Part shown: positions 1,460-43,360 of the stretch, in pieces
How positions within the stretch are numbered: position 1 is the first letter of the stretch
Layout of the letters: each line of letters begins with the position of its first letter
DNA from: Craspedostauros australis
Lineage: Eukaryota
Length of the DNA: 64,000 bases
Assembly: GCA_030167865.1 (NCBI GenBank)
Contig: JALAGF010004526.1
Location: forward strand, 1-64,000
Direction of reading: 5' to 3'
Translations under genes and position numbers: made by a program
The notes under the pieces: model-generated
Told to the model about the DNA's origin: nothing
The model's database searches: none
The model's input: the letters and a program-made list of their open reading frames with translations, nothing else

Positions 1460-4400
1460 CTACGCGCACACCATCCCAAGTTGGAATTCATCGATGATGG
1501 CCTTGTGGCTCAGCGTGATCTCAGCCTTCTCCAACAGCTCATGGATGTTCGCGGCACGGTGACAGACCTCCACAGTCTGGACGATGCGCGAAGCTGCTTC
1601 GTCTATCCTTGCATCTTCCAGGTTCAGCACGTACTCCTCGGACATGGCATTGATGATCGCATAATATGTCAGCATGGGACGCAAGGCGGCGCCGAAGTCA
1701 TCCACGTCTGCCCCACTCAGCGCGCTGCTGTTGTTCGATCGCTTGCGTTGCCTCTCGCTGTCGCTTCCACTCCCACGGCTGCTTCTGCTGTTACCACCGC
1801 CATCATCATTGTCGTCGTCGTCGTCATCTAGATAGTCCCAGTCCGCAAATGAATTGGATCTGTTGCGACTAGGTGTGTTGCGGCCGGATGCGCATCCGCT
1901 TCCCGCGATGCCAAGTGCGTGACGTCGGCCAGCGCAGTTGATCAAGGAACGAAGGAACAGGTCCTTCCCGACGACCCAGCGACGCTTGGGGCTTGGCTTG
2001 GATTCTTCGGTCCCCAGCTTGTCGATCGACCCCAGGTCAGGCGATTCGTTGTGGAATAGGATGCACGTCAATGCCGCCATAGGAGCTGAATCTGCGACGC
2101 CTCGGGTCAAGGGAGACGGGGAGCAAGCTGCTTTGCCAGACTGCCCCGACTGTCGCATGGATTTCGCAGCGAGAAGACCTGCGCTTAGCACCCGCGCATG
2201 CTGCGACGTCTTGGGGTCGTCGATCTGGGCATCCTTATCGAACATATCCGCCATGAACAGCTGGTAGAACACAAGCTGGATGTTTGATGCCAACGACCCT
2301 CCTTCGCAATCGACGCTCAAGGACTCACCGTGCGCCACGCGTAATAGCAACAGACGGACGTCATGAAGCACCTGCCACAGCATCGACTTGGGCCTCGCCC
2401 CCAGGAGGTTTGATATGGCGGTTTGATGGTCGGTAAGTCCAACATCGACTGCGACAAGCGGGACTTTGGACGACACGAGAGGCAAAATGACGTTGCAGTT
2501 GACCCTGGAGTTGCGCAGGCTGGCACCTTCCCACTCGCTCTTCGGTGCCTTCGGATGGTTCCTATCAGCGTGCCGGGCCTTGGAATGGCAGCTCATGTGA
2601 ATCGCATTGCCAGCTGAAACAGTGGTGACGAAATGGTTGGAGCGTCGGCTGCTGGAAATGCTGCTCGAGAATAGGCCTTCGCTTTTGGACGAGCGCAAGA
2701 TGTCTTGGCTGGCAGCCTTCGCCGCGGGGTACCACTCCATTCCTGCATGCGAATCCTCGAGTTCTTCTGGCATCGTCTTTGGGAACGCAGCCATCAGCGT
2801 TGTGCCATCGATGCTCTCCCGGCTTCCGCACTGGTTGGATGGGATCGACACCTTCTTGATGTACGCGTACAGTCCAAGCAACTCCGTTGGTTGAAGTGTT
2901 CGGCCTTCCTGACAGACGGCACACGTCAATCCCGTCTCATCTTCCATGTTCTCCATCTCAAGCATCCAGTCAGGTTTGGTGTTGGCGTTGGCGTCAACAT
3001 CTGGCGTTGCAAGTTTGCGCCGCTTCTTTGATCTGGTCGATGCCGCATCTGAACCTGGCTCTGACGGTGACTCCGCATCCGCCTCGCCGGTTGTCGCATC
3101 CGTGCCACCAGAAGGACTCGATGCTGTGCCCATGCCGGCTGCCTGGGTGGGCGAATCTGCGGATAGAGATACAGCGGCGTTTACGGCTGCATCGCTTGGT
3201 TGACTTGCAGCTGAAGATGTATGAGGCGATACGCCAGATCCAGGGCTCCTGCTCATCCTGGAATCACCGTCACCGTCACCGCCACCAACGCGACCGCCAC
3301 CGCCGCTGCTATTACGAGTCGGAGTGCCCCCACCGGAGCCGAAGCTGGATTTCTTGAAGAGGCTCTTGCGCCGTTCCATGGCGATCTCCTTCTTGCGGTT
3401 CCTTGTCTTCTGGCGCAGTTTCTTGATCTTGTTCGTGGCGAATTCATTTCCTTTCGACAATTCATCGAGCAACGTCTCTGCCGTCAGCCCCAGACCGTTC
3501 ATGGACACCTTCGCAGCCTGGTTGTCGGACGTCGCCTCCAACCAGTGGCAGATCTGCAGAAGGGAAACAGTGCCGGTGGGGTTTTTGTACGTCGCGATGA
3601 CATTCTGGGTCGGAGGGTGGTGTTTCGCAAGGCCGATCAGCATATTCAACGCCACGTTGATACCTCTTCTGTTGAGGTAGTTGCGCCAGTCGCACTGCAG
3701 CGCGGCCCGCTGATTGCCTGATGGTTTCTGGTCCTTTCCCCACAACGACGGCGACCATGGCGGTGGTTCGATTGGGATATGCTTGATTAGAACGCTGGCC
3801 ACGTTTGCAAGCATGCCGCATTCGACGAGCGCAACGCGGAGAGCGTGGCAAACCTCGTTTGCTGGGAGACTGACAGTCGTATGGACGAAGGTCTCCATCA
3901 TGACGGATTGGTTACTCTCGGTTGCATGTGACGCCGTCCCGACAACGCTCAGACAGTCGACATCAACATTGCGGGCAAACTGTGACGCCAATTCCCTGCA
4001 CAGGGCAGGTGATCCGTAGGTGAGATATGGGAGGAGCTTTGCAATGATGTTGCGCAATGGCCGGCCCAGCAACGTGTTCTTGATGGACGATAGCACCAGC
4101 CGAAGCGTGGACGCATCTCTCTCCGAATCTTCGACGATTTCATCCGTCGTCGTGCTGCTGGTTGCAGCATCGACGGTGGAAATGTCCGTTGCCAGCACTT
4201 CGATCATCTCTTGCAGCATCTTCGCTGTCGCGTTGTTCTCGGACTCCACCTGCGAATGTCCATCTTCCAGCGCATGCAGGACATCTAACAGCAGTCTGAG
4301 CAGGATGGTGGGCGCTCTGCATTGCAGCAAGAGGTTGCGGTTGCCTTGCAAGCGCGAGCAGCACCAGAGAAGGCTCAGTCCGGCATGTGGTGAACTCGCC

Positions 4401-6194
4401 TTGAAGGAGATTCTGGACACGTTGCTGCTCTTCTGATCCAGACCCACATCGTCTCTGCGGATTCTCTTGACGGTGTCGGTGATATAGTCCTCCACTGCGC
4501 GCAGTACAACGAAGATGCCGGACTCGGCGGTGACAAGGCGAGTTATCCCGTATTGGTTCTCCAGAAGTCTTTCGGCTTCCTCAGGAGTCGCCGCGTCGTC
4601 CACTTTGTCCGGATCCTTCAGGGTCTGCACCGTATCTTCGGTGGCCTCTCCATCCACCCCAGTCAGACGATACGTCACCACCATCGGCGGCAGCGCCGAA
4701 ATGGGCGTGCTCGCTGACACCTCGCTTCGGCTTTGGCGCCCGGAACCCGAGCCAGGCCAATTGGAGGTGAAGATCATCGACAGCCCTCCGGATCCTGCTG
4801 ACAAGAAGGACGAGCCACTTCTGGAGTTGAGGCCAGCCAGTATGGAGGACGGGTTCGATTGGGAGTTTTCCATCAGGAAGTTCTTCCACACCACCTGATT
4901 GACGACACGCAACTTCAGATCCAAATCCAATATCTTATTCGCGACGAGAAGCTCGATCAGCTCTGCGCTGTCCCCCATCTGCAGGTCGTTCGCGATGTGC
5001 TGTCGCAACTCGCGCACGGTTGGTTCGGCAGTCTCGCCGTCCACAGTCGCGCTGCACTTCTTCGACAGCATGTTGAGCGAGACAGGGTTTTGCGACAGGT
5101 TGCCTCGGAAGAACTCTTCTTGCGTTGGTGCTCGGCGAAGGACGATCTTGGCGTTGATGGGCTTCTTTTGCGGTTTGACTATTGTCATGATGGAGACGAG
5201 CATCTCCTTGCGCACGGCGATTCCCAACGTGCGATGGGACTTGAGTACCTGCATGCATGCGCTGATGTACGCTTCCTTCCGATCAGCAGTCTTTTTGCTA
5301 TCGACATTCTCTGCCGCAATTCGGGTGTGGGATGATTCATCACCACCTCCGATGCCTGCGTGCGTACTTGATGGCATGCCCAGCAACTGCGGTTGCCCGA
5401 GCTGCACCATGTCGTCAACGTCACCATTGGTATCAACCCCAATTTCGTCGTCTTCATTATCCTCGTCGTTGATGATGATGTCATGATCTGATCCGTGGAC
5501 GTGGACATCAACTTCGCCATCATCATCATCATCTTCTTCATCATCGTCATCGTCATGATGCACGTCACATTCAAGGCTCTCTATGCCCTCGTCTTTGTCC
5601 ATGATATCCACGTCATGCTCGTGGTCTTCCTCTTCTCCATCATCTTCGTCATCCTCGTCATCTTCATCATCATCCATGTCATCATGTATGTCGTCGTCCA
5701 TATCATCATCCATGTCGTCATCCTCATCGTTTTCATCATGGTCATTGTCGATGTCATGATCATCGCTGTCGAGCTCAGCATCAACATCAACGCCGGTATC
5801 ATCTCCACCATGTTCCATGTCATTTCCTCCATGCCCTTCGCTGTTGGTTGAAGCATTGGCTGTGTTGCGATTCCTGTCCCCGTCATTGCCTTTCGCATCG
5901 TCGCCCTCTCGGCTGCGGATATTGCCAGCATTGGCCCTGTTGCTTGCGACCTGCAGATCGGCGCCCATCAGAATATCACGAAGGATGATCCCTGCATCGT
6001 CGTGTGAACTGCCATCATTTCCGATCATATCGGCGTTGCCATTATTGCGACTGTTGCCTTCTTCCTGCTCCTGTTCCTGTTCCCCGTCGAGATCGTTATC
6101 GTTATCGTCATCATCCTCATCATCTTCGTTGTCGCTATCCAGCTCGTCTATCAAGGTGTGTATGTGGTCGTTGCTGTCATTGTTTTGATCATTG

Positions 6195-6227
<33 letters not shown>

Positions 6228-8197
6228 TCCTCCTCGTCCTCATCTTCTTCGTCGTCCTCATCATCATCGTCCTCATCTGAATGAAGTTCCCTGGTGTGTT
6301 CGACATCGTCGTCCTCGTCCTCATCATCGTCGTGCCCTTTTCGGGGTTGCATACCGAACATAGCATCTCGAAGGAGTCCATCATCAAATCGAACATCGTC
6401 ATCGTCGTCATCTCCGTCGTCATTGTCTTCCAGCCCTTCATTGTTCCTGGGATCCAGGGAAGAATTTCTGTACATCGCGGAGAATAGCCGGGCAACAGCG
6501 TTAGCCGTGCTTCCGGTTTGGCTGTCACGTTGTTGCTGCAGTTGCTGGCGAAGCCGGTGCCGTTGTTGCTGCCGACGTCGTCGTTTGGACTGCAGGATTC
6601 GCTGTGCCCGCAGTGACGCGGATTCGGCTGCTGACGGCATCTTTTCTTGCGCAGGTGACGTCGTAGAAAGGAAGGTGTCCACGAGCCTTTTCGAGGACGA
6701 TGCTTGGCTGCCACTGCTGAGAATCCCGGGCTTGCCTTCGCTGCGATGCCGAATCCGCGTGACGGATGGGCTCTGTTTGGGATCCACAAGAGTCTTCAGT
6801 ACGTCGATGCAGTCTGTCAACGGCGATATCCACATCGCGCTCGCGTTGGACTCGGTCTGCTGATTGGGCTGCGTTCGGACGGAGGTGGACGATAACCGGT
6901 TGCGATCGATGCATCTTGCCTGCAACAGATGGTACGTGCCAATGAGACATGCCAACGGGGACAATCGTCCGCCGCCGTCGCCGACTCTGCCTCCATCCGC
7001 GGTCAGCGACGAAAGAGATTGGACGGACTCCGACAATGATTGCGAGCTGCGACGGTCGTCCCAAAGCTCGCCGTGCAACACCTTGAGCGTGTGGAGCTTG
7101 GATCGTTCATCATCTTTGGGCCCCACTGTGTCTGAGCGCACGATTTCCGTCGAACGAAGCAGCATCGAGTGCACCAGATCGACGTAGGCAAGCAGCAGCC
7201 CATCGTGATCGACACTCTCCTGCTTGTGGAGATGGCGAAGCCTTCCGCGCTGTCTGCCGCCATCGTCATCATCAAGGTGAACGGCGAGACGCCAGATCAT
7301 GTCGCACAACCACGACAAACCGAACCGTCTTTGGTGGCCGAGGGCAAGACAGAAATCGGCATCCAGGTGAATGATGTGCTTGATGATTGCCAGCCACTGG
7401 ATGGAGACGGTGGGATCGACTTCTGGGTTGGTTTCCATGATGGTGAAGAAGAGCTGCACCAGCTGCCATCTCCTGTGTTCCGTGACATCACATCCATTCA
7501 TCAGGATCCGGGTAACCACGTTGCGGTGAGAGCTGCATGGCGATAGCAGGCCCTGCACGAGCCAGTGATGGCTTGTGGTTGTCATCATCCCCGTTGTGTG
7601 CGGTATCTCATTTCGTGCTTTCGGTGCGATTCCATGGTCGCCACCTGATGGTGCGGCGACGGAGGATGTCTTGGTCCGCTGCGTCCTTCCCCTGCCTGCA
7701 TGACCCTTCTTGGCCCTCTTGGGAGGACCCTGCTTGCTCGGCGTGGTGGATTTCTTGCTGCCCTGTGTGTTGGCCTTGTGGCTGGCGTTGCGGTTGACGC
7801 TTGTGACTGGCTTGGGAGCGGAGGTCAAGCCGGCCTTAGCCGTCGTGGCAGATGAGGTGGGCGATGGCGCAGATCCGCAGACCTTCGTTTCCTTTTTGCC
7901 GGCTCTCGCGCGTGCCCTGCGTGTCACCCAACCTGAGATCTTGAGACCCGCCTGGAAGCGATCCAGCGATTGCCTCGTAATTTCGTCGACGATGCCAGAT
8001 CGATGGGACAGGGCATCGAGCAATGGCAGCGGCAGGGACATCGACGAACGCAGGATGCTGAGGCGCGGGTCCGTCTTGCTGGTGCCTGATGACCCAGATG
8101 GTGCCTTGCCTTGACCCGCGGATGGAAGCGCAGATGATGGTTCCGCGGTCAGATTCCTCCGAGACGATCTCCCATCGTTCGCCCCTGTGCGCGCCAT
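1460..8197 (-). CDS. UBR4: UBR4/BIG-type E3/E4 ubiquitin ligase, C-terminal half (ARM repeats, acidic insert, UBL domain, hemiRING-UZI); 2245 aa, apparently intronless
   Basis: UBL segment IVLRRAPTQEEFFRGNLSQNP...IELLVANKILDLDL...VVTYRLTGVDGEATED (~5170-4640). HemiRING CAVCQEG..QPTELLGLYAY...TVSAGNAIHMSCH...SEWEGASLRNSRVNCNVILP (~2923-2480). ARM segment HWLVQGLLSP...RRWQLVQLF resembles UBR4 WLRQVLFTP...RKQQVLDLL. No UBR box in this ORF. Confidence 0.9.
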
Positions 8198-12760: not shown

Positions 12761-13861
12761 TCACTTCATTTTGCCTCGCTTTTCTTTACCTCGCTTCAAT
12801 CTCCTCGAATCTATTCTCTGCTGTACAATCTTTTCTTCCAGGATGAACGTCGACGTAACGTTGCAAGCCAAGTTTTGCTGCCTCCGACGCTGCTCGATGT
12901 GAACAGAAGACGGCGGCGAAGACGAGGTTTGCTTCTGCAGATGTTCGGACTCATCGTAACTTGCGAACCCATCGTGGGTGCCGCCCTCGATCCAGAATCG
13001 CTGCGTTGTTTCCGTTGGGAACAGCGAGTCGAACGCTTTCTGCCACCCCATGGCGAGTCCGTACTTCACCATGGCATCATTCGTGCCTTGAATCATGAGG
13101 AGTTTTGGTGACTTCGTAGCTGCCGTGAGATCTGCTGTGATGGAGGGGAAGGCGCCCATTCCCCAAAGCACAATCCGATCGACGCAATCGAACTTCGTCC
13201 ACAACTCGCAAGCGGCAAAGGTGCCCATGGAATGCCCCAACATGGTCCAACGCAGACTGGACTTGCCGACGGCCGCTTGTGTCTTCGTCATGATTCGGCG
13301 GATGGATCGTGAATCCGCCCCCAAGTGGCGGTGAGCGAGCCTTGTCGGTTCGAAGGATGCAACCACCACCACAGAGCCAGCGTCAGAGAGGCGTGCAGCC
13401 ACCTCAGCGTACGCCGCGTGCGGCACGAGCGCGCCTGGAATCAACAGAATGGCATCAGCTCCGCCTTCGGCGTCGACAATCTCTGTTGGTGTGAGCAGAA
13501 TCGGGCTGATGGTAGATCCATGCTCTCCCATGCTCTCACCATTTTGATGCGCCCGGTGTTCATCGAAACCAGTGGGCAGATAGATGTCGAATCTTCGAGA
13601 GCGTTGCAATCGCCGCACCTGAACTCGCTGCTCGATGGTGTCGATTGCCGATGGCAGAGCCGTAAATCTCCCAGCTTGGAATTTGGCGAGTTGCTGGGAT
13701 ATCTTCTTCACGTAGGGCACTGCGGTGCACATGGAATGAATGGCCCATGGCGATGCCATAGCCGGTAGAAATGGTATGCTCGCATGCCGCGAAAGGCAAC
13801 AAGTGTTGAGCAACCCGATGACAGCGAAGGGAAGTAACAGTCGCATGAAGCTACTCATCAT
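12761..13861 (-). CDS. Alpha/beta hydrolase (Abhydrolase_5-like) with N-terminal hydrophobic targeting peptide
   Basis: LLIPGALVP oxyanion region, GHSMG nucleophile, IQGTNDAMV (Asp), IEGGTHDGFASY (His). The start is uncertain (13861 MMSSFMRLLLPFAVIG vs upstream ATGs to 14002). Confidence 0.85.
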   Translation of the reverse strand: MMSSFMRLLLPFAVIGLLNTCCLSRHASIPFLPAMASPWAIHSMCTAVPYVKKISQQLAKFQAGRFTALPSAIDTIEQRVQVRRLQRSRRFDIYLPTGFDEHRAHQNGESMGEHGSTISPILLTPTEIVDAEGGADAILLIPGALVPHAAYAEVAARLSDAGSVVVVASFEPTRLAHRHLGADSRSIRRIMTKTQAAVGKSSLRWTMLGHSMGTFAACELWTKFDCVDRIVLWGMGAFPSITADLTAATKSPKLLMIQGTNDAMVKYGLAMGWQKAFDSLFPTETTQRFWIEGGTHDGFASYDESEHLQKQTSSSPPSSVHIEQRRRQQNLACNVTSTFILEEKIVQQRIDSRRLKRGKEKRGKMK

Positions 13862-14733
13862 TGCGGCGCTGTCAATCTGAAGGAACGGGCTCTCGACCAT
13901 CACTCGATACAGGCCATACCATGTTCGCGGAAAGAGGAACATGGTATGATCCATGATCTCCCACGTCAGATGCCTGTTGGCTCGGCATTTCGATCGGCCC
14001 ATCCTCGCAGCGTTTTCGGCATCAATGTTAGTGTCGTGGTTGGTATTATTGTCATTTCCCCGATCATCACAACGTTCCTGTCGTCGATGTTGCTTCCACC
14101 ACCACTCCAGAGGCTTCGCGCAAAAACGTGGATAACGGACTAACGGACAAGACCGATCAAAGTAAACCAGAGTTGGGACACACTATCCCCACAACTTTCA
14201 AATCCCCAACGCTTGTTGAATCAAGTGACTCGTCCGAATCAATTGGTTTCGTTGGTGGCACCTCAGCCAAACAGAATCTGGTCGAACGCAACCGAAAATC
14301 GCGTTCTGCCCACACAACTCCCAGCACGGACTACCGACTTCACACTACCACGAAACTGAAAGACACGCACTGAGCCGCAGTTGCGGAGAAAGCCTCCTTG
14401 TTCGCGTCATTGGGACATCACAAAGAGGGCACCACAGACATTGCGATCGAGCGTTGAGCGTGGATCAAGCCTTCTCCTCTCTGCAGAGATCATCAGTGCT
14501 GGTACTCGTACGAGTACGACTGACGAGGACACGTATAGTTGAGCGGTGTCAACAGACTTCGTCCTCCATCAACCAGACTACCATTGCACATCGGGGATCG
14601 ACGCGACGACAACTGCATCATCGACGATCGAGGCAGCAGCAGCAGTAGCGGCGGCGGCGGAAGCAACAATATCACCCTCCTTCACCCAAGCAGGTCTTAA
14701 ATTGAGTTGAAAAAGGATTGATATCTGTAGACG

Positions 14734-24258: not shown

Positions 24259-24355
24259 GCAGGAGCGACGTATTCTTTCGAAACGCTTGTCCTTCCAGTG
24301 AAGTTGGTGGAGCAGAGGCCTGTGCGACCGCAAGCATGGTAGTATCTCAACAAGT

Positions 24356-24379
24356 AGAGAGAGAGAGAGAGAGAGAGAG
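24356..24379. repeat. (GA)n microsatellite
   Basis: About 12 AG units in the 3' flank of USO1. Confidence 0.9.
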
Positions 24380-26900: not shown

Positions 26901-26948
26901 NNNNNNNNNNNNNNNNNNNNNNNNNNNNNNNNNNNNNNNNNNNNNNNN
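26901..26948. other. Assembly gap (N run)
   Basis: 48 N bases. Confidence 0.99.
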
Positions 26949-27161
26949 GCCACAGGGAATCTACGAACATTTGCTGCGCCTGTGAATCAGTGACAGTCTC
27001 GAGCAATTACGACCACAGCCAACGATTATACGTGACAAAAGGGGTATCAGGATAGAGTGGAACCCGTCGTGCTTCACATATCTTGTGATTTGGAACACAA
27101 CTCATCAATTGGTGATTGCATGCAGAAAGGGTATTGCATTTCTGTCACGGCATCTCTCTCT

Positions 27162-27273
27162 NNNNNNNNNNNNNNNNNNNNNNNNNNNNNNNNNNNNNNN
27201 NNNNNNNNNNNNNNNNNNNNNNNNNNNNNNNNNNNNNNNNNNNNNNNNNNNNNNNNNNNNNNNNNNNNNNNNN
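27162..27273. other. Assembly gap (N run)
   Basis: 112 N bases. Confidence 0.99.
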
Positions 27274-28499: not shown

Positions 28500-31400
28500 A
28501 TGGCTGGAACCAAGCGTCGCAGAGGATCGTCCAAATCTTCCCCCCGAGGGGCATCCGCAAGGTGAGCGCGGATGGAAGCACTGTGTTGATGTTCGCAAGA
28601 TACCTTGGTGCTTGCTTTCGTCTGATTCAACCCTTTCCAAAAGTGAGAGAGGTACTTCATGAGTTCGTACCGATGGCTACTACCTTGATTCCTGCAATGC
28701 TCCTCATTCGCTCACATCTTCCATGTCATTCTTCGAGCACAACCGCTCTGAACCATGTGCCATACAACGTACGCTATACACTCTGCCATACGCTATCCCT
28801 TCGCAGCCAGAGAAGCACGCCGGATGCTGCTGTGGGGGATGCTGTCGCCAAGAACAGCGACCTCGAAGTGGCGATGGAAACGTTGGCGTTTCTGCTGCAC
28901 CAAACCCAGTCAGAGCAAAAGTCGTTGGGACTTCTTCAGGCATTTGCAGACAATCCATGCAGCTTGCTGAACAGCGACGCTGAAGGAGTCCATCCTGGAT
29001 CGTTACCGGATGATTGCGGTTGGCTGGTTCTTGCAGTCCAGATCATGAACCATCTTCTCCCACTCGTCAAAAACAACGAAGATTCCGCACCACTTGCATG
29101 CTTGTTGACCGCATATGCGCACTGTGTCGGAAGCGTGCTGCGAAGCGACGAGCACAAACTTGAACGGGCGACTGCGGGTTCATCTCCGAGCAGGAGTATC
29201 CTCGGACGCTGCGTCATGACAACCGTGGCGGCATGTTCCACGGCCTTGGATAGGTTCACGCAGCTGAGGCCAGACGTGGACACTGTTGGCAACGCGGAAC
29301 AACAGGTCCGCTGCCAAATGTTGTGCATGGCTTCTAGTACAATGGCGTCGCTGTGCCACCTGCACGCAGCTCCGAAGCCAAAGTCGCAACAGGTGGCGAG
29401 CAACGAGACGCTTTCGTGGGCGATCCCGACGGATACGCGCGCGTTGGCGAATGTGATATCCAGTTCGAACACCTGCCTGTCGCTGCATGAGAACATCACG
29501 AAATGCTTTCAACATCTCAAATCAAAGCCACACACTGCGTCTTCCTCAACAGCCATTCTCGCCGTTCCATCGACCGAGTCGCCGCAATCCTCAAATCAAA
29601 GCCCAATGAAGGAGACTGGAGATTCAGCTGCGACAGCTGAGACCACAGCATCGCCGATAGCGCAAGGGAGCGATCCTCCTGCGAAGAGGACCCGGAGAAC
29701 CAGGGCCAAATCCTTCAGAGCCGACGGCAAGTTCAACGCCGCCACAAAGGCTCAATTCCATGCAACGGAGGAGAAATTCCGAAGCATGTTGGATGTCCAC
29801 AACATTCGGATCGATGGCCGCAGCACGGCAAAGAAATGGCCGGCGGCCACTTTGGCTTGGATGAGCCAGGGCGAGAACCGCATCGCCCAGATCCTGCGGA
29901 GACTCATCGAAACGCAAGAGAGCTGGTTCGCCGCGTTCGCGAGCAGCGGCTTGCCGGTGCTCGGTCAACGCGCGATTCTCGTGGTTTGCTGCGATTTGGC
30001 GATGCTCTTCGCGGAGGAGACCTCTAGCTCTGGCAAGGCAGCCGGGGGTGGAGTAGAGCAGTACTTGAAGGCCATCGTGGGCGGGGAACGAATCACGAAG
30101 ACGAAGAAAGTCGACAACCCGGCCATCGCGGAAGTGGCGATGCTGCTCATTTGTGAGATGGTGAGGTTGGAAGCAAGGTATCGATCGGCAATTGCACCAA
30201 GCGATCCAATCATCCGGAACCTGCACACATCATGCGGCAAGCCGGATCTGGTGGCAGCCATCAACGCAATCTCCGAGGGTGTCGCTGGTCTCGTGAAAAC
30301 TGCGCAGAGAGCTGTGTATTCAGAATCCTTGTTGAACTGGGGCGCGGCATGGGTTTTGAGCTCCACGGCTACCTCCAAGACGCACGTCAATCCGGAGCTC
30401 CTTTCCTTCGCTCTCGATCATCTGGAAACATCCATCATGCTGCTGGAAAGCTCGAAAGCTCCCAGCGCCAAGAAAGGGCAGCGGAATCTGATAGAGGAGT
30501 TGCGTCTCAACACCCCGCTCCAAGTCCCATCGCCAAGCGTGGTTGTTGCTTCGCCCGGCAAGAAGTCTAAAACTGCAAAGCGCACAAGAAAGCAAAGCAA
30601 AACAGACGTCGTGGCTGATCGAGTATCCCTCTTCGCTGCACAAGATTCCCTTCGGCGGGAGTCACACTTCGCTCTCTTCATCCGGGCCTTTGCAACGGAG
30701 ACATCACGAAACATCGCACCGGCACCAGCGACCCCCACGAAGACGAAGACCAAGGCGAAGGGCAAGGGCAAGGGCAAGGTGAAAGCAGAACCACCAATGG
30801 CCGACAGCGAGGCAAGATCAGCAGACGATGCAATCATTGCGATGTATTCAACGATCCTTGGTGTTATTGAATCTGCAAGCGGGTACAACGGAGCATTGTC
30901 CTTCTCGAGCGACAATGCTCTGAGTGACGGAGATGGCGCAAGCATAGCGGCAAAGGGCAAGGCAGGATCTCCAAGTCTGCGCAACCGAAAGCGAGCGAAG
31001 ATCGAACAACCATCGAGCGCTAGAACGGCGGAGGCAACACTGATGACCATGACAGAGCAACGGACGCAACTCGTAACGTCTGCATTGAATGCTCTTCTTG
31101 ACTGCCTCATGATCGGCAGTTCCGAAGAATCGTGCTTCAGACAGCTCATGCAGTCGGCGTTCGGTCTGCCTCTCGTCAGGCGTTTCCTTCGATTTGGCAC
31201 GCACGCTGATTCGGTCATAATCCGCGGCCATTTGAATGATCGGCGAAAGGCACAGCCTGGTTCGGTAGATGAAGGACGTGCCGTCGGAGGCCTGAAAATG
31301 CAAGCGCAAACAGCGACAGTCGCGGTGGATGACGGCGCACCTGGGGATTGCATATCGCATGGAATCAAGATGGTGTGGTCCATGTTGATCAACATATGCC

Positions 31401-34400
31401 AAGTCCTGGGACGAGGCAACACGGCCACCAACCTGATACAGATGGTCATGCGAACTGCAAGTCGCACCATGGCTGACGACGTCGATACAAGGACCGCATT
31501 TTATTCCTACTTCATCGACTCGGACAACACGGCTGAGCCACCTGCCAAACGCAGCTGGGGGCTGTCCCTGCCGATCCCACACCAAGTGATGTTGTTGGCC
31601 CGATTGAGCGCCAATCCAATCTCAGGCTTGTTGGATGATATTGCCCCAGAAGCCAACATCATCGAGGGCTACAGAACGAAGATCGAGGGACACGTATCAC
31701 ATCTCCTCCGCGTGCCTTCTGGTGATGCCATGATGGACGGCGGCGGCGATGACGACTACAATATTCATGAATCTGCCAACGGCTCAAACATGACCCCTCT
31801 GTCACGTTTGGATGCACAGATCTTCATCATGCTATTTTTGAAGTTGCCACGAAGTGACCAGCTCGTCGTTCTGCGCGAATTTATCGAAAGCGCGTCGGGA
31901 TCGTTTTCCCACTTCACAGCGTGGCTGGAGCAGCGGCAGGAGCCCGTCACCGATGGTTCAGTGGCTTCGTTCCTCTCCCGACTGCTGATAACTTTGGCCA
32001 CAATGGTGGATGCTGTGGCCATGGGAGACAAATTCAGAGAAACTTTTGCGAATGCTATCAGTGGAATCTCGTTCTCAGTCCCGTCCATCGTTCCATCGCA
32101 AGCGTCTCATTGCAGTGACAATCGCTACAGCAGTCTGTGCGGTCGGTGGGATGCTCCTTGGCTAGCAGATGTCACCATGTCACGCATTTCCATCAGTGGC
32201 AACATCGTGACCGCCTGGAAGGATCTGCTGCAGCAAGCATTCGCAGCAGGCTTCACGACATCGCAGAGTGACGATTGCCAGCTGCTGTATACCTCATGGA
32301 GCATGATGGGGAAAATTGAGAATCAGACAAGGAAGTCACACACGGAGACCCAGTTGCCGCCGGCGCCACTTAGAACACCCTTCTGCCTCAAGGACCCCTC
32401 AGTCCACATCTTGGAACTGAGGGAAGACATCTGCTCCATCTTCACAATGTTGCAAAGAAGAACAACCGCTCCGAGCAGATTGAAAGCCTTCATTCAGAGC
32501 CTCACGAAGAATGCAGAAAGTATGCTGGATTCGGTGTTGAAGAACGAGGAGCGGATGCTGCAATCGGAACAGCCTGGGTTATTCTTTTCCTTGCTCTCTG
32601 CACTGTCCGTGGCACTATCTGCAGCGGCCGCAGCATGCACCACCACCGGTAGTCTTGCAGGCACATCCACTTCGAACAGCATGTCCGCCGCCCGAGCACT
32701 GCTGGGACAAGCCGGGATTTTCACCAGCGAAACTGATTACGGGAACATTTTGGACGATGCCGAGCCTTCCCAGTCCCTGAGCACTGTCGACGAAAGCAAA
32801 CCAGAATCGACCCGCTTACGGGCATTCTGCGGCAAATATGGCAGCGCACCAACGCATCCAGACTACTTGGACATTTCCTGCAAGTTGCGAGAGGGAATCA
32901 GCAAGACTGAGGCTGTCAACATCGCCGAGCTGGCGTTGCGATGTCAAACGAAGCTGGCTTCAACTGCAGTGCAACAGATGAAGCAGATGCAGAAAAATAT
33001 CATCGCGGCTGCGAGCATTCAAGCTGCCAGCTCAGGCAGCCAAGACAAGAGAGAAGATATGGAAAGTGTCGTCGCCGCGTTGCTGCGATGGTCTTCTGAC
33101 CACCATCCCGCGCATCCGGGCGTACCACAAGACTGGATCAAGCTCGTGGCGGAATGCACCGGGTTGGAGTATGACGCGATCAGGCGTCTCCCGCGTGACC
33201 GAGAAGCTCCCGATCTCGCATCAATCAAGAACAACTGGGGCCAGCATGCATCACAACAGCTCCGAGGCAGTCTCCAAAAGCTAATCCACCAGAGCAAGGA
33301 ATGGAACGTCTCGGCAGCGGAGCTGAGAGCCTGTGGTGAGTGGGAACTGCTGCTCGCGGAAACGTTGGCAGTGTCCATTTATGGTGGTGCGGATCCTTCG
33401 CTGGCGCATTCTTCGAGCCCTAATTCTACCATGAGACAAACGTCGACGAAGCAGAAGCAGCCGGAAAAGAAACGAGCAAGGTCGGTCGCACGGATGGCAA
33501 CCGGATGGCATGTCGTGTGCACGTCCGCCGTGTCCAACCTGCTATCGGCATCTGCCTTGCTCCGTCTTGTGTTGGGCAAAGTCGGAAGACGGCCACACCC
33601 CGCCTTGTCCATGCAGGATTCAATTAGCGCCACCGATTTGTCGCAGTTCCGACAGAGCGAGTCATTTTCGGTAGCCATCCAGGTACCGATGTCAGTCAAG
33701 TTGACAATACCGACCACATGCACAACGCTGGCCACGCTGTGCACAGTGCTCCCCACCACTCTGACCCCTTTGTGCCATGCCGCAGCAAGCAACATTTTCC
33801 CGGAGTGGAACCACTTCGATCGCATCGAAAGCAGTTCCAAGCTGGCCTCCGCATTTGACGCAATCTCGTGGATTCAATCAACCATGCCTTCTGCCGACAG
33901 CAACGAAGCGATGGCTAAAGCTTCTGCGACATTGGTCGAGACGCTTTTGACAGTTGCGTTCCGCCGCGGGCTTGTCAGATCATCATCGTCGACAGAAACC
34001 GACCGAGAGAAGTACATTCCTCGGAAGCGTCTCCTATCCTGTCTTGGGACCAGCGACGGCATGACAGTTTGGACAATTGCCGATGCAGACACCCGAGAGT
34101 GGACAACGACGCTGCATACGCTGGACAAGCTCATTCCGGCCAAGCCTTCCCACGCATCAGGTGCCGGAAGGAAGAACGAACAGACATCAACTCCCTTACA
34201 TCATTCCGATCCTGTTTCTTTGCTTCTGGATATTATCATGTCAAGCAGGTCCACAACGACGCACACAAGTCGGGTGCTTGCCGCATGCATGATCACGAGC
34301 TGTTTGGAGGAGGAACAGGCAAACAGAACGGTGGCGGACCAGGGAGATCAAGCGAAGCAATCTCCGAATGGTGTGATTCCGATCAGACTGAAGTGTCTGG

Positions 34401-37400
34401 AGTACTTGAACAATATCGAAGGCAGCAGCATTGAGAAATGGTTGGTGGCAACCATCTGCAACGAGAATCAGCCGCAGCAGGACCTTGACCAACATCACGA
34501 TACCTCACGACTGCGCAAGTACATGCACGATGTCACCATGCTCTTGGCAATGCTGTTGGTGCCATTCCCTGGAAAACCAGATTTCCAACACGGCAATCGG
34601 ATTGCATCGGTCTTGCTGCGAACCATGGATGAATGGACTTTAACCCCCTTCGCTGAAAAGCGAGACGTGGCCTCGGTGACGTTCCTCTACTGCACGATGT
34701 ACGACAGGATCGCAGAACTGTTCCATAGTTTTGGCTCTCTCAAGGCCACCCTCGTGGCTTCCAAGACCGAGCCAAAGACAAGGCCCAAGGTGGTCAGGAT
34801 GGAAAAGATGAAGTACTTGGCCCACGCATTGACTTACTTCTGCAAGCTGAAAAACACGATGAGACACGTCAGTACAGGATCGGTACGCAAGAACCAGTCA
34901 CGTCAGACCATTGACGAAGCCGAAAGCACGGGGCAATGGCCGAACCCGTCGCACGCTCCAAACAAGAGCATCGAAGACATGAAACGTCACGCAACGTCGA
35001 AGGTCCCCAAGCTATGTTCGTTCAAATTGAAGAAAGGGTTCCACGGGCAGCACTGGTACAATTGCTACACGTGCGACCTCGTTTGGGACAAGGGGTGCTG
35101 CACGCTTTGCGCGGTGCTGTGCCACCAAGGCCACGACGTCTCCTATTCACGTTACAGTTCATTCTTCTGTGATTGCGGTGCCGATGATGGCGGGGTGTTG
35201 GAGACTTCTCGAGTTTCATGCCAATGCTTGTCGCCCGTCCCAGAAGGCGCATACAAAAGCTTGTTCGACATTGGCGACGAGGATGCGAACAGGGCAGCAG
35301 AGCCGCCTGCCATAGTCGACCACCTGGACGCCATAGTCGGAATCGCATCGATGCTGTCCAAGGAAAGCCACTCAACGATCGACATGTTGCTCAACCACAT
35401 CGACTTCGAGGCGATGAAGAAGCTCGTCTTTCCCATCTTCAAGGAGCATTTCCAGGAATGGCAGGCGCTCACGCCTCCACAGCAGTCCATGTCTCGTCTT
35501 GGCACGGATGTCCCAGCGAGCGTCACCGAACGGTCACAATCCGCTTTTATCAGCCTTCAGGCAAGAGTACGACACTCGGACAACACCCACCTCACGGCCA
35601 AGCTCTTGAATCCATGCGATTTCAAACTTCTTCTGCAAGTCTCGGGGTTCGAAGTGGATTCATTCCGTTCTCACGCATCCACTCTCTCACATGGCAAAGC
35701 CGCCACTCCGCTGAGTGCATTCGCTTTTGACAGCCGTGGACGCATGGCCCTGATCGGCACAACCTCTTTAATTTTCGCAAGCTTGTCTTCGTCTGTTCGC
35801 AGCAATGCAGGAGGCGAGGGCACGGCAAGCGAAAAGCTGCGCCGATATGGAGAAACTTGGTTACGACGAGAACATGTATCTATCCTGGGGGTTTCACAAC
35901 TCGCTTTCCAGGCAACCAGCGTCAGCATCTGCCCTTCGAACGAACGCCACCTCTTGATTTGGAACGCAAATTCGGCGAAATGCTGTGTGATCAAGCCGGG
36001 TTTTGACGGAGTCGAAGCCACTATTTCGTTGAAGGCCACCACGGCCGATGGTGACATACTGGAAGGCACTGTGCGTCAGTGTGAATGGATACCGCAGTCC
36101 CAATCGCACGTTGTGGTCTGTTTGGAGCATGCTCTGAGCCTCTTCGATCTGCGGCGGATTGACCGGGAGAACAACTGCTTCCCCGTATCGCAGTGGCAAG
36201 GCAAGTCAACTTCATCACTCGTTCGCATCGCAAACGTACCATCCAGCCACTCTTCCGACATGGGCGTGAGTGCCCAGAGTGGGCAGAACTTCAGTCGCAT
36301 GTACGCCCTGACGAATGAAGGTGCTCTGTTGGAGACTGTGATCAAAGTAACGAAGGATGGGAAGTTGGACACCGAGCTCCTGCAGACTCGGACAGAGGCT
36401 CAGCTGGGGGAGTCCATGATCGACAAGAATTCGATGGAGGTCGAGCTCGAAGATGCCAGCAGCGGCAGTATCGATGCTGTTCGTGGTACTGCCGATGGCA
36501 GCACAGCTCATGAAGGGGAGAAAAAGACGAGATGTTTCACTCTGCGATACTTGCAACAGAGCCGGCTGCTCCTGCAAGAGATGTCGGATTTGTCCATGCT
36601 GGCACACAGGCTCAGTGACGATGGCGCAATCTTAGATACTTTTGAATTCATCCCTGCGCAGGTGCCAGACGAAGGTGATGGCGAAGCGAAGCCCGGTGAG
36701 GATGTCACTGGCCCATTCACGCACTGGGTGGAGCTTGGTGTCGTCAAGCGCGATGAGCTTCGATATTTTCGTGCTTCATGCCTTGCGCGAACGTGTGCCA
36801 GGAAACGCGCAGTTCCACTTGTTGTCGAATTCAACGACCGTGAGATCCATATGCGCACAATACGTCCTGCGGTTTCAGACAAGCCTCACGGCAACCAAAG
36901 CAGCCATGGGCGTGACAACCGCAGCCACAACAACAGCCACATCGGGAGCGGAATCGCCGTTCCAACGTTAAGTCGAGACATGCGAAGAACGCGCAATGTG
37001 GAATCGCTGTACTGCCTGGGGGCATTCACTGTGCCCTCCGAAAAAGTGAACGCGTCGGGAGAAGCAACATATGATGATTGCCCTGTGCTGTGCGGCTACA
37101 GCGCCGACGGGACGTTGCTGTTGTTCGGAGAACAAACGCAGCATGACGAATGCGACGCGACCGGGCTCGTGAGAAGGAACGAAGATTTGCATCCAACCAA
37201 GCGAAGCAATCTGCAACAGGTCTACGAGCTCACAGCCTTTGAGAGGATGGAGAATATTTCAGAATCGAACATGTTGCAGTTCGGAGGACACGGCTTGGGC
37301 TGCGACCCTGGTGACCTCAAGCGACGGCTGCTCGCGCGGGATGGGTCACTCTTCCTCATGTGCCCCAACGTCAATGGCTGCACGTTCACGATATCGCTCT

Positions 37401-40400
37401 CAACAGACGAAAGCGCTGGTGGGCGTCCATCGAAGAAGGTCGGTGTTGCGAAGCCCAAGCTCGTCATTGGTGGTGTTAGAATTCTGGTCGGCTCTTCGTC
37501 GCTCGATTCGATTCCCAGACACATCATCATCCAGGGGCGGCGCATCGACATCACGCCGCGCTTGAAGAAGTGGTACAGCATTCCACTCACCGTCGAGGAA
37601 ATCATCGTTGGCGTTCGCACGGGCAGTGTATGTGTCACCATCACCGATGCGTTCGGGTCATCCTTTGAGTCATCCTTGTCAAACCCCGTCATCGATGCTC
37701 TAGAGGTGTGCGCGGTTGGGTACGATTCTATTTCAGACTTCGTTTCGACTGCACCAGCTGATGACGGCCAAGACTTGGCGGGCGAGCTCATTCGGTACGA
37801 CAATCGGCGTCTACCAAGCATTGATCTTCGTCGTGACGGCGCCGGATTGGTATCGACCATGTGGGCGATGGCACAAATGACCGATCTATGCGCGTCGCCG
37901 CCGCTGTCTCTGGATGACCACGAGGGCTTCCTACAGGAGCTCGTTCGCAAAGTCATGTTGGGTTCCGATTCCGCTCTGCAGGATTGCACGAAGTCTCTCA
38001 TCACGCGTTCCATACGAGATGAGAAACGGTGTGCGTCATTCATTGATGAAGGTCTCCTCAGCGGATGCTCGGACGTCCTCGAGGGATACCTGGCTTCATT
38101 GCAACAGTCCGGGGGCGCGCAGGTGCCAACTCAGACGATGCAACGGATCGTTTCGATCGCTGCAAGCGTGGCAAGAGAGCGGCCCATGAACTACCTCCAG
38201 ACAACAGAGATCATTATGGAAAGGCACCACGGCCGCGCTTCAATTGCCAATAGCGCCTGCAAGATCGTAGATGGTCTTGCTCGGCAGTCGAAGTTCAACG
38301 CTTTCATCGACGGAACCCGCGGAGGCGTCGTTGACCTGGCGCTGACGGAGCTTGCCATCAACCTCTACGCCGAGACGTTGCACACGAAGAAATTTGCCAA
38401 ATTCGATGCGATCCGTCCCCTGCTTGAGTCAGAAGAAGTGTCGGTTGTTGCAGGCTGCTGTCGCACGATTTCCGACTTCTGCAGACGCGGCGATTTTCAC
38501 GAAAGCGACAGCACGCGTCCCGACCTCTTTAACCTGCTGCAACGCACCAGGCTGGTCATGTATCGCTGTGACAGCTGCATGCTGTACCCCATCAAGGAGG
38601 TCCGCTACTGCTTCCCGGAGGATATGCTCGACATCGATATCTGCAAGACATGCTGGGCATCCGGTTCACAATACGCCAAGCTACACAATCATTCCAAGGA
38701 CGAACCGCTGCGTGTGGAAGGAAGGACCATCCAAAACAACGGCCAGCAGCTGTCATGCTTCCAGTTTCAACAAATGCGGGCTGTCTCCTTGCTCCGCGTT
38801 GACGTGGAACAAGTGGACATGGAGGTTGATGACGATGGCGACGCCGGCGATGCGCTCGGTGATGGGCCAGGCGGTCAAGCCAAGGTGCCTTCCACCAGGG
38901 CTTCAAAACCGGTCGGGACATCGGGGAAGGACAGCAAGGCTCACAGGTCCACAAAGCAGCTTGGCGACGAGTCGTACGAAACTTTCACCAACCACCTGTT
39001 CTTGCTGGTTTCCGAGGTGTTCTCTCGTGGTGTGAAGAATCACAGAAGCGCGGCGTACTCAGACGTCGTGCTGCGCTTGCTTCTTGACTTGGTCCGGTTC
39101 TCCAGGTCTGAGCACAGCGTGCTCGACAGGGCAAAGAGGCTGGCAACAAGCATTGTGCACACTCTGTCTTACACCTTCATGCAACCGACGATGAAGAACT
39201 CCTTAAATTTCCACGAGCAGTCCCAGGTGGAGATTGGATTGCGAGCTCTGGTCAATCTTCTCAAACCGGAGTGCGACCTTGCATTTTACCTCCGATCATC
39301 CATTCCACATGAGGGAGTAGAGACAGCAAGCGCTCCGCCTTTGACGTTTGGGTCCGTATCGACAGCCTCAAAGGCATCTCAGCCACGTTGCGAAGACCAC
39401 AACCACCCAACCATTCGTCGGAAATGTACGTACGGTGAGAGGAAGGGCAGATCGTTCCACGTGTGCGGCATGGAAGCGGATCAACGTTGCAAATTCATGC
39501 AGTGGGAAAATGAGAAGAAGACAACAACATCGACAAGATTGAATGTAACGCCACCGCTGACGGGGGCGCCTCAGCGCAAACAGCCTCACGCAACATCGTC
39601 TAAAGCGAAGGTCGCTCTGAAATCGCATATTTGGACACTGCTGTCTGCGTCGACACCTTCGCTTCATTCTCATCTGTGCCATTTGGTTGGTCTCAAGACG
39701 CCGCCTGAGACAGAACGAGCGGAAGCTCCGCGCTCGCGCACAGTTGCTTCAACTGCCGGTGGCACAGGAGACTCGTGGACATCATCGAAAGATGTTCTGT
39801 GCAGGTATGGTCGCGCCCAGATCATGGAGGATCTTGCCTCCGGGATCTTTGCCTCTCGTCAGATTCTGGCAGGCCCTGCGAGCATGCCGATCAGAGGGGA
39901 TGAATGCCAGCAGAGCTGGATGGATGTGCACGCTGGCGCCAAAAGGAGCGAGTCGCTGCTGAGAGGCACGCTCCAACTGATCACAGAAATCGCAAGCCAC
40001 CAAACCAAAGGGATGTCGCGCTGGCTCTCGCTGCTCTGTAGCATCAGCATTTCCACCGACAGTCCCCCAGAGGTGCAAGCTGCCGCCAAGCACGCGCTGA
40101 AGAAGCTTTGCGGAGGCAAGAAGGCTGTTTTCAACTCCGTGCGTGACCATTTTGCCTTCGGACACTTGGTCCGGAAGCTCCTGTCGAATGCGCTGCCATT
40201 GCTCAACGCCGCGCTGGTGCTGAAGGAAAAGTCCCGCGTCTGCCGCGATGATTTCGACAGCACAGAACCGGTGCGTTGGGAACATCTCACCTCATTTGGT
40301 CTGGTCGGTACGTCGCAACTCATTTCGGAAAGCACAGTCCACACCGTCGACCATTCCAAAATAAATTCCCTGCTAGACAGTCTGTGGACGATGATAAAAG

Positions 40401-43360
40401 TGCGCCCGCAGAATTGGATGCAATTTTGTGGACTGCAGAGCCTTCCGTCGACGGAGCAGATCGACGGTGGATCCACGACGGAGATGGAAGCGGCGGCTGC
40501 TCCCCTGGTCACGTTGCTCTGGATTGCATCGGTCCTGTGTGGCACAGTCCAAACCAAATCCTTCCGATTGATTGGTGTGGCATTTTCGTCAGCAGCAGCA
40601 GCGGCAGCAGACGGACCAAAGCCTGCAAAGAGCACATCAGGCAACCAATCATCTGTGAAGTCTCCCGGTCGCAAATCCTTGGCAGTGACTTCCGCCGTCG
40701 CCACTACCACCACCAACAACAACAACAACACTACCACCGAAACACCCTTGTCGCCTCCGCTGATCCGAAGCCATGAACAGTCGTCACCCGAGGACATCGC
40801 GCTGTTGGGTACGCACAAGGTCTCCTCCGATGACATCGTGATGTTTGTGGTCGAATTTGTTCTCAATGGCAAGACGCCAGAACTACGAAGAGCAGCCCAC
40901 ACCATCGCCGCGAGGATCCAACGAAATCTCGACAAGGACCGTGCAGGGGCTGTGACCACGCGGCTTTTCGCCTGGTTGGATTGCGTCGGGGTGCATGGCA
41001 AGGCGTCTATCGAATTCCTCAACCTTCTCCAAGTGATGATCAAACACCTGGGTGGCATTCATTTGATCGTGCAACTAGCGTCCACGGTATCAGATAACAT
41101 GATCAAACAGCTGAACTGCCTGCGGTACGACCGAGGCAATGGCGCATGGCTCGTTCTGGAGGGAGTGAGCAACACGCCTTCGGCGCACATGGGGCAAGGA
41201 AGGAAAAAGTTCGATCTGCATGATTGCGCACATTGCAGCTGGCATTATCTATCCCAATACACTGAACGAACCAACACTGATCCAGCGAAGGAGCATGAAC
41301 GTCCACGGAGATCTGCGGTCCGATCGGCAAACGACTCACAAGTAACCAGGGTGCCGCTCCTCAAGACGCTTCGCCAGTCCAACAAGGAGCCCGAATGGCA
41401 CCCTTCGCAGGTCTCTCCATTTACCAGGATGCGGTTGGATTCGATCAAGAGCGCAGCATTGAGCAACGAATTCTGTGCCTTCTTCTCCTTGAAGCATCGG
41501 GTCGCGATGAGCAGCCTGATTATGAATGTGGGCAACCCACGCGGTCGTTTCGTCAAAATGGTGACGATCTACGCTACCGAACGTCCCGTGTCAAAGGCTG
41601 TGCAGCTCAAGTCGGACGACTATGCCCCACAGTGGCGGAAGTGTGGGGTGCTCAAGTTCTCTCGAGGAGCTCCACAAGGCAACGTGTCATTTGACGAGCC
41701 CGTGCTTGCTGCCAACCTCAAGATCGAGTACACAGAGTTCTACGATCGTCCCGGCAGCTCGTCGTCAAAGTCTTCAGAAGGCGCCCTTGTCGTCCACTGC
41801 CCACGCTGCACACGGATTGTCACCAACGCGCATGGGGTTTGCGGGAACTGCGGAGAGGTGGCATTCCAATGTCGAAAATGTCGACACATCAACTACGACC
41901 GCCTCGATGCCTTCCTTTGCGTCGAATGCGGTTACTGCGCATCGGGCAGCTTCTCATTTGAAATCAAGGCCGGCGATGCGTCGAACGCAATCGCAATCTG
42001 CACAGACGACGACCGAGAACGAATGTCGCAGCTGCTCTTCGGCTGCACATCGTTGGCAACCAAGCTGCGGAGCAAGCTGAAGGCACGCGTGACGTCTGTC
42101 GCCTCTGATCAGCCTGTGGTGAGATTCAATCCATTCCCCGATCATGGAAAGTTTCAGTCCCAGATGGTCCGAGCTTTCCAGGGCCTCCCACCACGCGTGT
42201 CGCCAGACCCAAAGAAGGGCGATTCGAGAGACAGCAGAGGTCTTTCCATCTTTCAAAAGCGAGGTGCCGTGGTCAGGTACATCGCGAGTCCCGAGAAGCC
42301 AAGGCGGCACCCCGGTCGGTCTTCATCAGCATCGTCCGACAGGACGAGATCTGTGTTGCGCCTGGCGCGCCAAATTCGCTCTCAGACGAATTCGTTGGAC
42401 CGCCGTCGGTCAGGTGATGTCATCATCCACCACCTTGGACGCGGCCTGACGATCGAGCATGGCGACGATGACAACGATCTGCTTGGGTTGCTGGAGGCGA
42501 ACATGCTTGAGTCCACGACAAGTCGCCTTGGGCAACAGGTGGAGGAATCAGGATTCCGAGGGGTGCTGGGAATCGGTGATGATGGTGCCGAGGGTGATCT
42601 GGGCCGTTCTGGGGGCACAAGGCGCGGCTCTGCAGGCGATGACCAAGACAACCCGCCGGGGTCATCCAGGATCTCCGGAGGTCGTTCCGGCGCACGTTCA
42701 TCATCGTCAACTCCACCATCAAATAGAGCGGGCGCGGCAAGCCAGGCTTCGGAGGAATGCGAGCGCATCCACATGCTGATGAGAGAGGCTGACAGGGAGT
42801 GTCGCGAACTGCAACGCCGGTTGGATGCGTGGCGCATCCTGGAGGAGGGATCATTGTATCAATACGATGGCGACAGGCAACGTGTGCAGCAGCAGCACGT
42901 TGAACACGAAATCCAAGGAACAGGGCAGGCGCAGATGGGAGCACTGCCTGCTGCTCTCTTCACTCCCTCGCACTGCTCAGTTTGTGGTCCGTCGGTGGCG
43001 GTGCACCTGTTGAGCGTTTGGGTCACGCTGTTCTCAATATCACCATCGACCGTTCAGATCGATCCCAACCTCTTGAGAGTGCTATTGGAGGACGTACGCA
43101 GTCACCACCCCAGCAAGCAGCTGCAGGAGTACCGGCTCAAGGCGGTGGTGGAGATCGCAAGCAAGTCGGAAACAGGCGCCGGCCTTGTTCTGCGGAAGCT
43201 TCGCGAGCTGTTGCAGGCAACGCACGATCCTGTGTACGCCGAAGTGCTTGGCAGGATCCTTCGCGTGAAGAACTGCGTTCGCATGAAAGATTTCGAGGAG
43301 CTTGCTTTGGACGTCCTCGCAAACGAGCAAGCTGGGGCGGGCGCATGGCGAAGTGGATGA
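28500..43360 (+). CDS. UBR4: UBR4/BIG-type protein, N-terminal/central half, ~4871 aa; exons 28500-28561 and 28807-43360
   Basis: UBR box CSFKLKKGFHGQHWYNCYTC...[20 protein letters not shown] (~35015-35230). Beta-propeller-like region (~35700-37150). DOC-like VRILVGSSS...WYSIPLTVEE (~37220-37720). ZZ finger (~38561-38700). GRF finger (~39389-39508). Second DOC-like domain (~41420-41750). Cys-rich domain CPRC...CGNCGE..FQCRKCRHINYD...FLCVECGYC (~41798-41938). The ORF-track start is a GTGAGC donor; a phase-2 intron at 28562-28806 joins an upstream ATG exon (MAGTKRRRGSSK) in frame. Confidence 0.9.

Follow-up and report, generated by a model that had tools for sequence, protein, structure and literature searches.

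The 64,000-nucleotide window analysed here, positions 1 to 64,000 of the forward strand of contig JALAGF010004526.1 (GenBank assembly GCA_030167865.1) from the diatom Craspedostauros australis, likely carries the two genes of a naturally split UBR4/BIG ubiquitin ligase, separated by one ancestral fission and encoding products that reassemble. Both halves (hereinafter the N-half and the C-half) are intact, separately delimited genes, whose end points are conserved across diatoms and whose linkage is variable. The evidence supports a gene fission into a recognition/scaffold gene and a catalytic gene, and judging from sequence searches the enzyme is apparently split in diatoms generally. UBR4, a ring ligase of 1.3 MDa, has a central role in protein quality control, and its size hampers its dissection. 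The human enzyme works with KCMF1 and calmodulin in the SIFI or UBR4 E4 complex (PDB 9nwd, 9d9z, 9qws and others). In animals and plants the enzyme is a single chain; the diatom form would be its naturally occurring two-piece counterpart.

Under the standard code, the two halves are encoded by open reading frames (ORFs) on opposite strands, 20 kb apart. The C-half gene (1460–8197, minus strand; protein P0001) comprises 2245 codons, begins with an ATG at 8197 that is preceded by an in-frame TAG four codons upstream, and encodes an ARM-repeat head, an acidic insert, a UBL and a hemiRING-UZI module, as supported by the ORF itself, a match to the Pfam family E3_UbLigase_R4 (PF13764, E = 2.3e-96) and matches to BIG and UBR4 chains. 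The N-half gene (28562–43360, plus strand; protein P0002) comprises 4932 codons and, according to its ORF, Pfam matches and structure-chain matches, encodes the scaffold, a UBR box, a GRF-type zinc ribbon and a beta-sandwich/Cys-rich region before ending at its own TGA (43358–43360). Neither ORF is interrupted, and their 5′ ends face each other over the spacer. An earlier interpretation by a model that saw only the letters and a list of ORFs (hereinafter the sequence-only reading) had proposed these two genes, with an ATG and 2245 residues for the C-half, a stop codon for the N-half and no frameshift in either, all of which is borne out. Its limits for the N-half, 28500–43360 with ~4871 residues, hold at the 3′ end; the ORF opens at 28562, where a GTG is the first possible start and from which 4932 residues are counted. 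The match of P0002 to other N-halves starts near 28862, and the true start is probably one of the Met codons at ORF residues 10, 38, 46 and 105, between 28589 and 28874. The earlier length is therefore approximate. A pseudogene reading was rejected, being ruled out by stop-free ORFs of this length and by invariant catalytic and zinc residues.

Aligned with 13 fused reference proteins, P0001 and P0002 account for separate, collinear parts. P0002 never matches these references past the Cys-rich region, P0001 never matches them before the UBL region, and no domain is common to the two, in agreement with the adjacent coverage anticipated by the sequence-only reading. Instead of a single chain of ~5000 residues with all domains, the window holds two ORFs, each with its own start and stop and each representing one of two adjacent segments of the fused form, which are non-overlapping save for ~50 residues in alternative fold alignments.

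P0002 possesses the UBR-box zinc finger of the family. Its residues 2149–2211 (window 35006–35194, plus strand) match chain 8j9r_A (E = 1.8e-18) and zf-UBR (PF02207, E = 4e-5; 24.0 bits, just below the 25.2 cut-off), and the Cys and His columns are invariant in an alignment of 18 N-halves. P0002 also possesses the beta-sandwich and Cys-rich zinc-finger appendage: residues 4285–4487 (window 41414–42022, plus strand) match human UBR4 residues 3541–3734 (E = 2e-48) and BIG residues 3322–3502 (E = 6e-52), and the region reaches E = 1.5e-52 in hhalign. Both elements had been assigned correctly by the sequence-only reading. The ZZ domain that it also placed in the N-half stands in part: Pfam reports none in P0002 at E ≤ 0.1, and a ZZ-like Cys pattern is conserved in the N-half alignment, with PF00569 present in three homologues. 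The protein ends with a helical bundle (P0002 4809–4931; window 42986–43354, plus strand) that is predicted with high confidence (predicted local distance difference test, pLDDT, 87–94), lies at the C-terminus of all 80 proteins bearing this tail and is the presumed docking surface for the C-half.

Two further features of the N-half vary among relatives. A GRF-type zinc ribbon at P0002 3621–3652 (window 39422–39517, plus strand) matches PF06839 (E = 0.0032) and the NEIL3 GRF chain 7jl5_A (E = 1.6e-5); precomputed PF06839 matches exist for 13 of 23 diatom N-halves and for no fused relative in the same listing, and the ribbon may, on this distribution, be a diatom-lineage insertion. One N-half cluster, P0143 (5087 residues), combines the UBR box with ankyrin-repeat families (PF12796, PF13606, PF00023 and PF13637), which suggests lineage-specific accretion on the scaffold half too.

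P0001 contains the C-terminal E3 module of the family, comprising hemiRING and UZI. Residues 970–1993 align with residues 4091–4855 of Arabidopsis BIG (9qt9_A), and human UBR4 4302–4994 also aligns with the protein. The hemiRING crystal chain 8b5w_A matches with E = 2.2e-23 and with the CxxC and H..CH motifs in register, and residues C1759, C1762, H1867, C1870 and H1871 are invariant in an alignment of 29 C-halves. These residues belong to the hemiRING-UZI module (P0001 1735–2193; window 1619–2995, minus strand), which is also the best PF13764 stretch. The UBL region upstream of it (P0001 970–1122; window 4832–5290, minus strand) aligns with BIG 4091–4234 and human UBR4 4302–4430 and has many invariant columns; the UBL is recognised by this alignment, the predicted fold there being poor (pLDDT about 50–60). 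An Asp/Glu-rich low-complexity insert of ~400 residues, apparent in the translation (P0001 ~580–950; window 5348–6460, minus strand), separates the UBL from the ARM head and is predicted to be disordered, with pLDDT below 50 over residues 655–964. The consensus of the 29-sequence alignment has acidic runs at the same place in other diatom C-halves.

The ARM-repeat head (P0001 211–478; window 6764–7567, minus strand) opens with an HWL motif and is identified by confident helices, a UBR4 fold match and invariant residues (H211, R225, W379 and L415 in all 29 sequences, Thalassiosirales included). The sequence-only reading had assigned an ARM segment, a UBL and a hemiRING-UZI to the C-half, and the present alignments and fold matches agree with all three. 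Ahead of the head lies a new N-terminal motif (P0001 56–105; window 7883–8032, minus strand), conserved in 19 aligned diatom heads and in the consensus of the C-half alignment, and predicted with pLDDT 83–91 as a short helix followed by a long basic helix with a Trp. In the fold comparison its position corresponds to human UBR4 ~4006 onward, and by position the Trp-bearing basic helix is a candidate counterpart of the UBR4 lid/calmodulin segment. Searched alone, the 66-residue N-terminal motif gave no UBR4 match, its sole hit being a ribosomal protein at chance level (E = 0.87). In five of six scanned Thalassiosirales-type C-halves (P0097, P0103, P0105, P0114 and P0115) a UBA-like domain (PF14555, E from 8e-8 to 8e-11) sits upstream of the counterpart of this motif; it is a lineage-specific addition at the new N-terminus made by the fission.

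The same two halves recur in other diatoms. A C-half search listed 120 proteins of 1237–2802 residues with PF13764 only, the named sources including Seminavis robusta, Nitzschia inconspicua, Fistulifera solaris, Epithemia clementina, Cyclotella cryptica, Conticribra weissflogii, Thalassiosira profunda, T. exigua and Leptocylindrus danicus. With the N-half tail as query, 23 proteins without PF13764 were found, among them proteins from Cylindrotheca, Seminavis, Epithemia, Fistulifera, Cyclotella cryptica and Thalassiosira sp., plus nine fused proteins with PF13764 (Aureococcus anophagefferens and Selaginella included). Both halves are thereby found in named diatoms including Seminavis, Fistulifera, Epithemia and Cyclotella cryptica, those of Epithemia with consecutive locus tags (012973 and 012974), and no diatom-named protein occurs among the matches of 3930–5000 residues. 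Transcript-derived proteins of both halves from other diatoms (P0017, P0046, P0075 and P0146) are labelled 'type:complete' by their source, labels that may point to separate mRNAs and proteins for the halves.

The end of the N-half is fixed. The last 453 residues of P0002 are matched by 22 of the 23 diatom N-halves, and in 21 of these 22 no more than 27 residues of the subject remain beyond the match; the Cylindrotheca model is the exception. An index-free search of 1.84 billion representatives with P0002 4272–4932 gave 556 hits. Among 305 pooled related proteins the diatom-type tail is present in 80 and is C-terminal in every one of them, with 1–12 residues left in 56 and, in 24 truncated matches, at most 136 residues left. 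C-half homology is found in none of the 80, and the tail is absent from all 32 proteins of the pool that join the Cys-rich region to the C-part. About ten proteins of ~930–1090 residues (P0211, P0222, P0223, P0226, P0231, P0240, P0242, P0249, P0253 and P0259) match just the first ~150–180 query residues, the beta-sandwich, at ~47–59% identity and stop at that point; they may represent either fragments at the exon level or a distinct family that terminates in this domain.

The start of the C-half is likewise constrained. All 19 aligned C-half heads start with Met, and an LPLLEGL...RW-basic helix motif, followed by an HWL..SL.S motif, is recognisable in most of them. The LPLLEGL-type motif lies ~30–85 residues in for the 17 heads with a leader, and the Fistulifera copy is degenerate. 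The head alone detects 24 of the 120 C-halves by BLAST, yet is alignable in 29 sequences.

We computed a FastTree tree from the conserved C-terminal part of 56 rows, including 30 of the 120 C-halves and leaving out P0127 for short coverage. All 31 split rows fall in one clade with support 100 and a single label change, in keeping with a single origin in this FastTree-only analysis. The same break is shared by relatives. Fused relatives including Aureococcus, then plants, lie outside this clade, and the window's protein groups with Nitzschia- and Pseudo-nitzschia-type sequences within it.

The relative placement of the two genes differs between diatoms. In this window the halves stand head-to-head with 20 kb and other genes between them. 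In two metagenome contigs (L010 and L011) they are also head-to-head, with about 780 bp between the ORFs. In a third (L029) they lie on the same strand, and a VKOR-family gene and a two-exon amine-oxidase gene separate the N-half stop (4311) from the C-half ORF (starting at 7964). N-half sequence occurs in just these three of 39 diatom-type loci (L001–L039), and a collinear, contiguous N-half is absent from all 11 diatom-type loci whose upstream sequence extends for 5 kb or more. Since the arrangements differ, the halves are independent genes. In most of the low-identity loci L041–L080, a Cys-rich match precedes the UBL match by ~1.4–3.5 kb on the same strand, the layout to be expected of fused genes. 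Conserved end points, one clade and three gene arrangements uphold the gene fission proposed by the sequence-only reading; the event is older and wider than could be known from this window.

To locate the break, we compared models of the N-half tail and the C-half head with known chains. The tail model has a mean pLDDT of 59.9, rising to 87–94 over the last ~125 residues, and aligns with BIG 3349–3796 (Z = 11.3) and, in three human UBR4 entries, with residues 3548–4007, 3546–4006 and 3548–4006 (Z = 8.9–9.8, the 3548–4007 match scoring 9.8). The head model has a mean pLDDT of 53.1 with confident stretches at 56–105, 212–355 and 414–471. Its best match is human UBR4 4006–4340 (Z = 14.9, root-mean-square deviation 3.3 Å, 236 residues aligned), the top five fold rows are all UBR4 complexes, and the best unrelated repeat protein reaches Z = 11.8. 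The tail and head ranges meet at about human UBR4 residue 4006 (±50), equivalent to ~BIG 3796, where these models would place the break, in accord with the human ~3950–4080 predicted by the sequence-only reading. By sequence, hhalign places P0002 4801–4890 on Macleaya BIG 3649–3738 (E = 0.07) and P0001 207–474 on Macleaya BIG 3934–4110 (E = 0.0019). Trimmed-head alignments A3 and A4 were discarded, MAFFT having stretched the fragment end across full-length rows.

The C-terminal dimerisation scaffold of human UBR4, its calmodulin-binding helix (Trp4105) and its Gly4301 hinge are described in passages of PMC12286842, and a C-terminal pin helix of KCMF1, together with a lid that also mediates calmodulin binding, is placed at the UBR4 C-terminal interface in PMC7618180. 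Set against this published architecture, a break at ~4006 falls inside the dimerisation scaffold rather than at the hinge. As modelled, it precedes the calmodulin-binding helix and adjoins the calmodulin/KCMF1-binding segment.

These observations can be combined into a model in which the ancestral enzyme came from one gene. That gene, which remains fused in plants and in Aureococcus, a pelagophyte, would have been broken once, before the sampled diatoms diverged, as the single clade of split forms suggests. The break would interrupt the helical scaffold that runs from the Cys-rich appendage to the UBL. The N-half (~4900 residues) would keep the ring scaffold together with the domains that face the substrate (UBR box, ZZ-like finger, beta-sandwich and zinc fingers), and the C-half the last ARM repeats, the UBL and the E2-recruiting hemiRING-UZI module. 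The two proteins, made separately, would reassemble non-covalently through the helical elements on either side of the break, the terminal bundle of the N-half stacking on the N-terminal helices and ARM head of the C-half. If the human and plant complexes are a guide, a KCMF1/DI19-type pin helix, calmodulin and the antiparallel partner protomer probably clamp this junction, at the C-terminal dimer interface. The outcome would be a rebuilt UBR4-type ring with a non-covalently attached catalytic arm.

Several points weigh against a reassembling split enzyme of single origin, or against the precision with which its break is placed. Reassembly in trans is an inferred step, and a complex prediction without alignments, for C-half residues 50–500 with N-half residues 4735–4932, scored 0.01 against a mark of 0.34 and weighs neither way. 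A fused UBR4 paralogue may exist elsewhere in this organism, outside the window. The collinear matches that hhalign gives across the break, for the tail and the head on 13 fused segments, are weak, and a profile of the 29 C-halves run against PDB sequences aligned the head to neither BIG nor UBR4. The tail fold matches at a root-mean-square deviation of ~13 Å, because its domains are flexibly linked, and the fold Z-scores are within reach of chance for helical repeats. Three human entries start the head match at 3949–3962, and the break is therefore fixed just to about ±50 residues. The tree comes from FastTree only and with long-branch warnings. Most relatives are metagenome proteins, some possibly fragments, and Bolidophyceae/Parmales, the sister group of diatoms, were not identified among the matches.

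An unlikely alternative is that the products no longer cooperate. In that case the C-half would have become an E3/E4 module acting on its own, perhaps with other partners, and the N-half would serve as a scaffold or receptor without catalytic activity. Lost or variable linkage of the two genes would fit this, as would the long disordered acidic insert of the C-half and the gain of a UBA-like domain in five of six Thalassiosirales-type C-halves, which represents independent domain evolution. However, the conserved, confidently folded helices on both sides of the break correspond to adjacent parts of one scaffold in human UBR4, and both halves are present in Seminavis, Fistulifera, Epithemia and Cyclotella cryptica. 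The known function would also be lost on either side, from a ligase module that has no domains for substrate binding and from a scaffold that has no ligase. It is also conceivable, though we hold it doubtful, that the fission made the catalytic arm exchangeable and separately regulated, so that activity would be set by the supply of C-half, which in some lineages would have acquired parts for targeting or ubiquitin binding (the UBA-like domain of Thalassiosirales being an example) and could also work off the ring or on other scaffolds. Pairing of the catalytic half with other adaptors, raised by the sequence-only reading, is pure speculation.

That trans-splicing or read-through joins the two messages so that a single polypeptide results is very improbable, and nothing found speaks for it: the in-frame stop of the N-half is conserved, the C-half starts with a Met of its own behind an upstream stop, transcriptome-derived ORFs of each half are labelled complete by their source, and in this window as in L010/L011 the two genes occupy opposite strands. 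Least credible of all is an assembly or annotation artefact, in which one gene was split by a mis-join, an inversion or missed introns; although the halves would formally become collinear again if one inversion, with breakpoints near 8.2 kb and 43.4 kb, were undone, the stop position is the same in 80 independent proteins, the start region is the same in 19–29 C-halves, an in-frame TAG lies four codons before the C-half ATG, and metagenome contigs have other genes between the halves or a divergent orientation. A split enzyme whose two products reassemble is the reading that we retain.

The spacer between the divergent halves (8198–28561) contains other ORFs, among them an alpha/beta hydrolase ORF (12761–14002, minus strand) and a 1631-residue ORF without a Pfam family (14734–19629, plus strand). 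GC content drops to 0.43 at 26001–28000, compared with ~0.55 elsewhere; this stretch, which lies just ahead of the N-half gene, is probably intergenic or holds the promoter of that gene. Beyond the N-half gene, three consecutive or overlapping ORFs at 47795–52672 (plus strand) have C2 and YbjQ-like domains of the C2CD5 type (PF00168, PF23025 and PF23028) and are probably one gene broken by introns or frame changes.

No description of a split UBR4/BIG in diatoms was found in the literature on UBR4/BIG with diatoms, Phaeodactylum or gene fission. The main text of PMC7618180 does not mention a split (the word occurs 0 times), nor do the passages of PMC12286842, and those of PMC13721120 give no domain boundaries. 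Public annotations already name both halves 'BIG' or 'UBR4'; the gene models are therefore known and the fission appears to have gone unremarked. For diatom annotation, two 'BIG/UBR4' gene models would then be halves of one enzyme rather than paralogues or fragments. A fission apparently fixed across the sampled diatoms marks where the chain tolerates a cut, with both genes kept under selection, and the cut site suggests a design for a two-piece recombinant UBR4. A further question is whether a scaffold and a catalytic arm on separate chains can be regulated separately.

The family architecture, as described in PMC7618180 and in passages of PMC12286842, is a ring-shaped dimer with a KCMF1/DI19 pin helix and calmodulin, which extends K48 chains with UBE2A/B. 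The two diatom proteins share with human UBR4 the UBR box, beta-sandwich/Cys-rich region, UBL and hemiRING-UZI in the same order, and the modelled folds flanking the diatom break match human residues 3548–4007 and 4006–4340. Unlike human UBR4, the diatom form comprises two genes and two polypeptides, cut inside the C-terminal dimerisation scaffold, has a ~400-residue acidic insert before the UBL and a GRF zinc ribbon in the N-half, and is very divergent in its scaffold sequence. Arabidopsis BIG (AtUBR4, PDB 9qt9) is the best sequence match of both halves (E = 6e-52 for the N-half and 5e-40 for the C-half), and the internal ZZ-like finger of plant BIG (PMC7618180) is also present in the diatom N-half. 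By contrast, BIG is a single chain of ~5100 residues, and the diatom split falls at ~BIG residue 3796. In the tree, the nearest fused relatives are the UBR4 of Aureococcus anophagefferens (P0155, 5058 residues) and proteins P0154, P0230, P0241 and P0290. These combine PF02207 and PF13764 in a single protein and differ from the diatom form in being unsplit and without a detectable diatom-type tail. The Gracilaria protein P0297 (2872 residues) likewise differs from the diatom form, being continuous from the Cys-rich region to the hemiRING.

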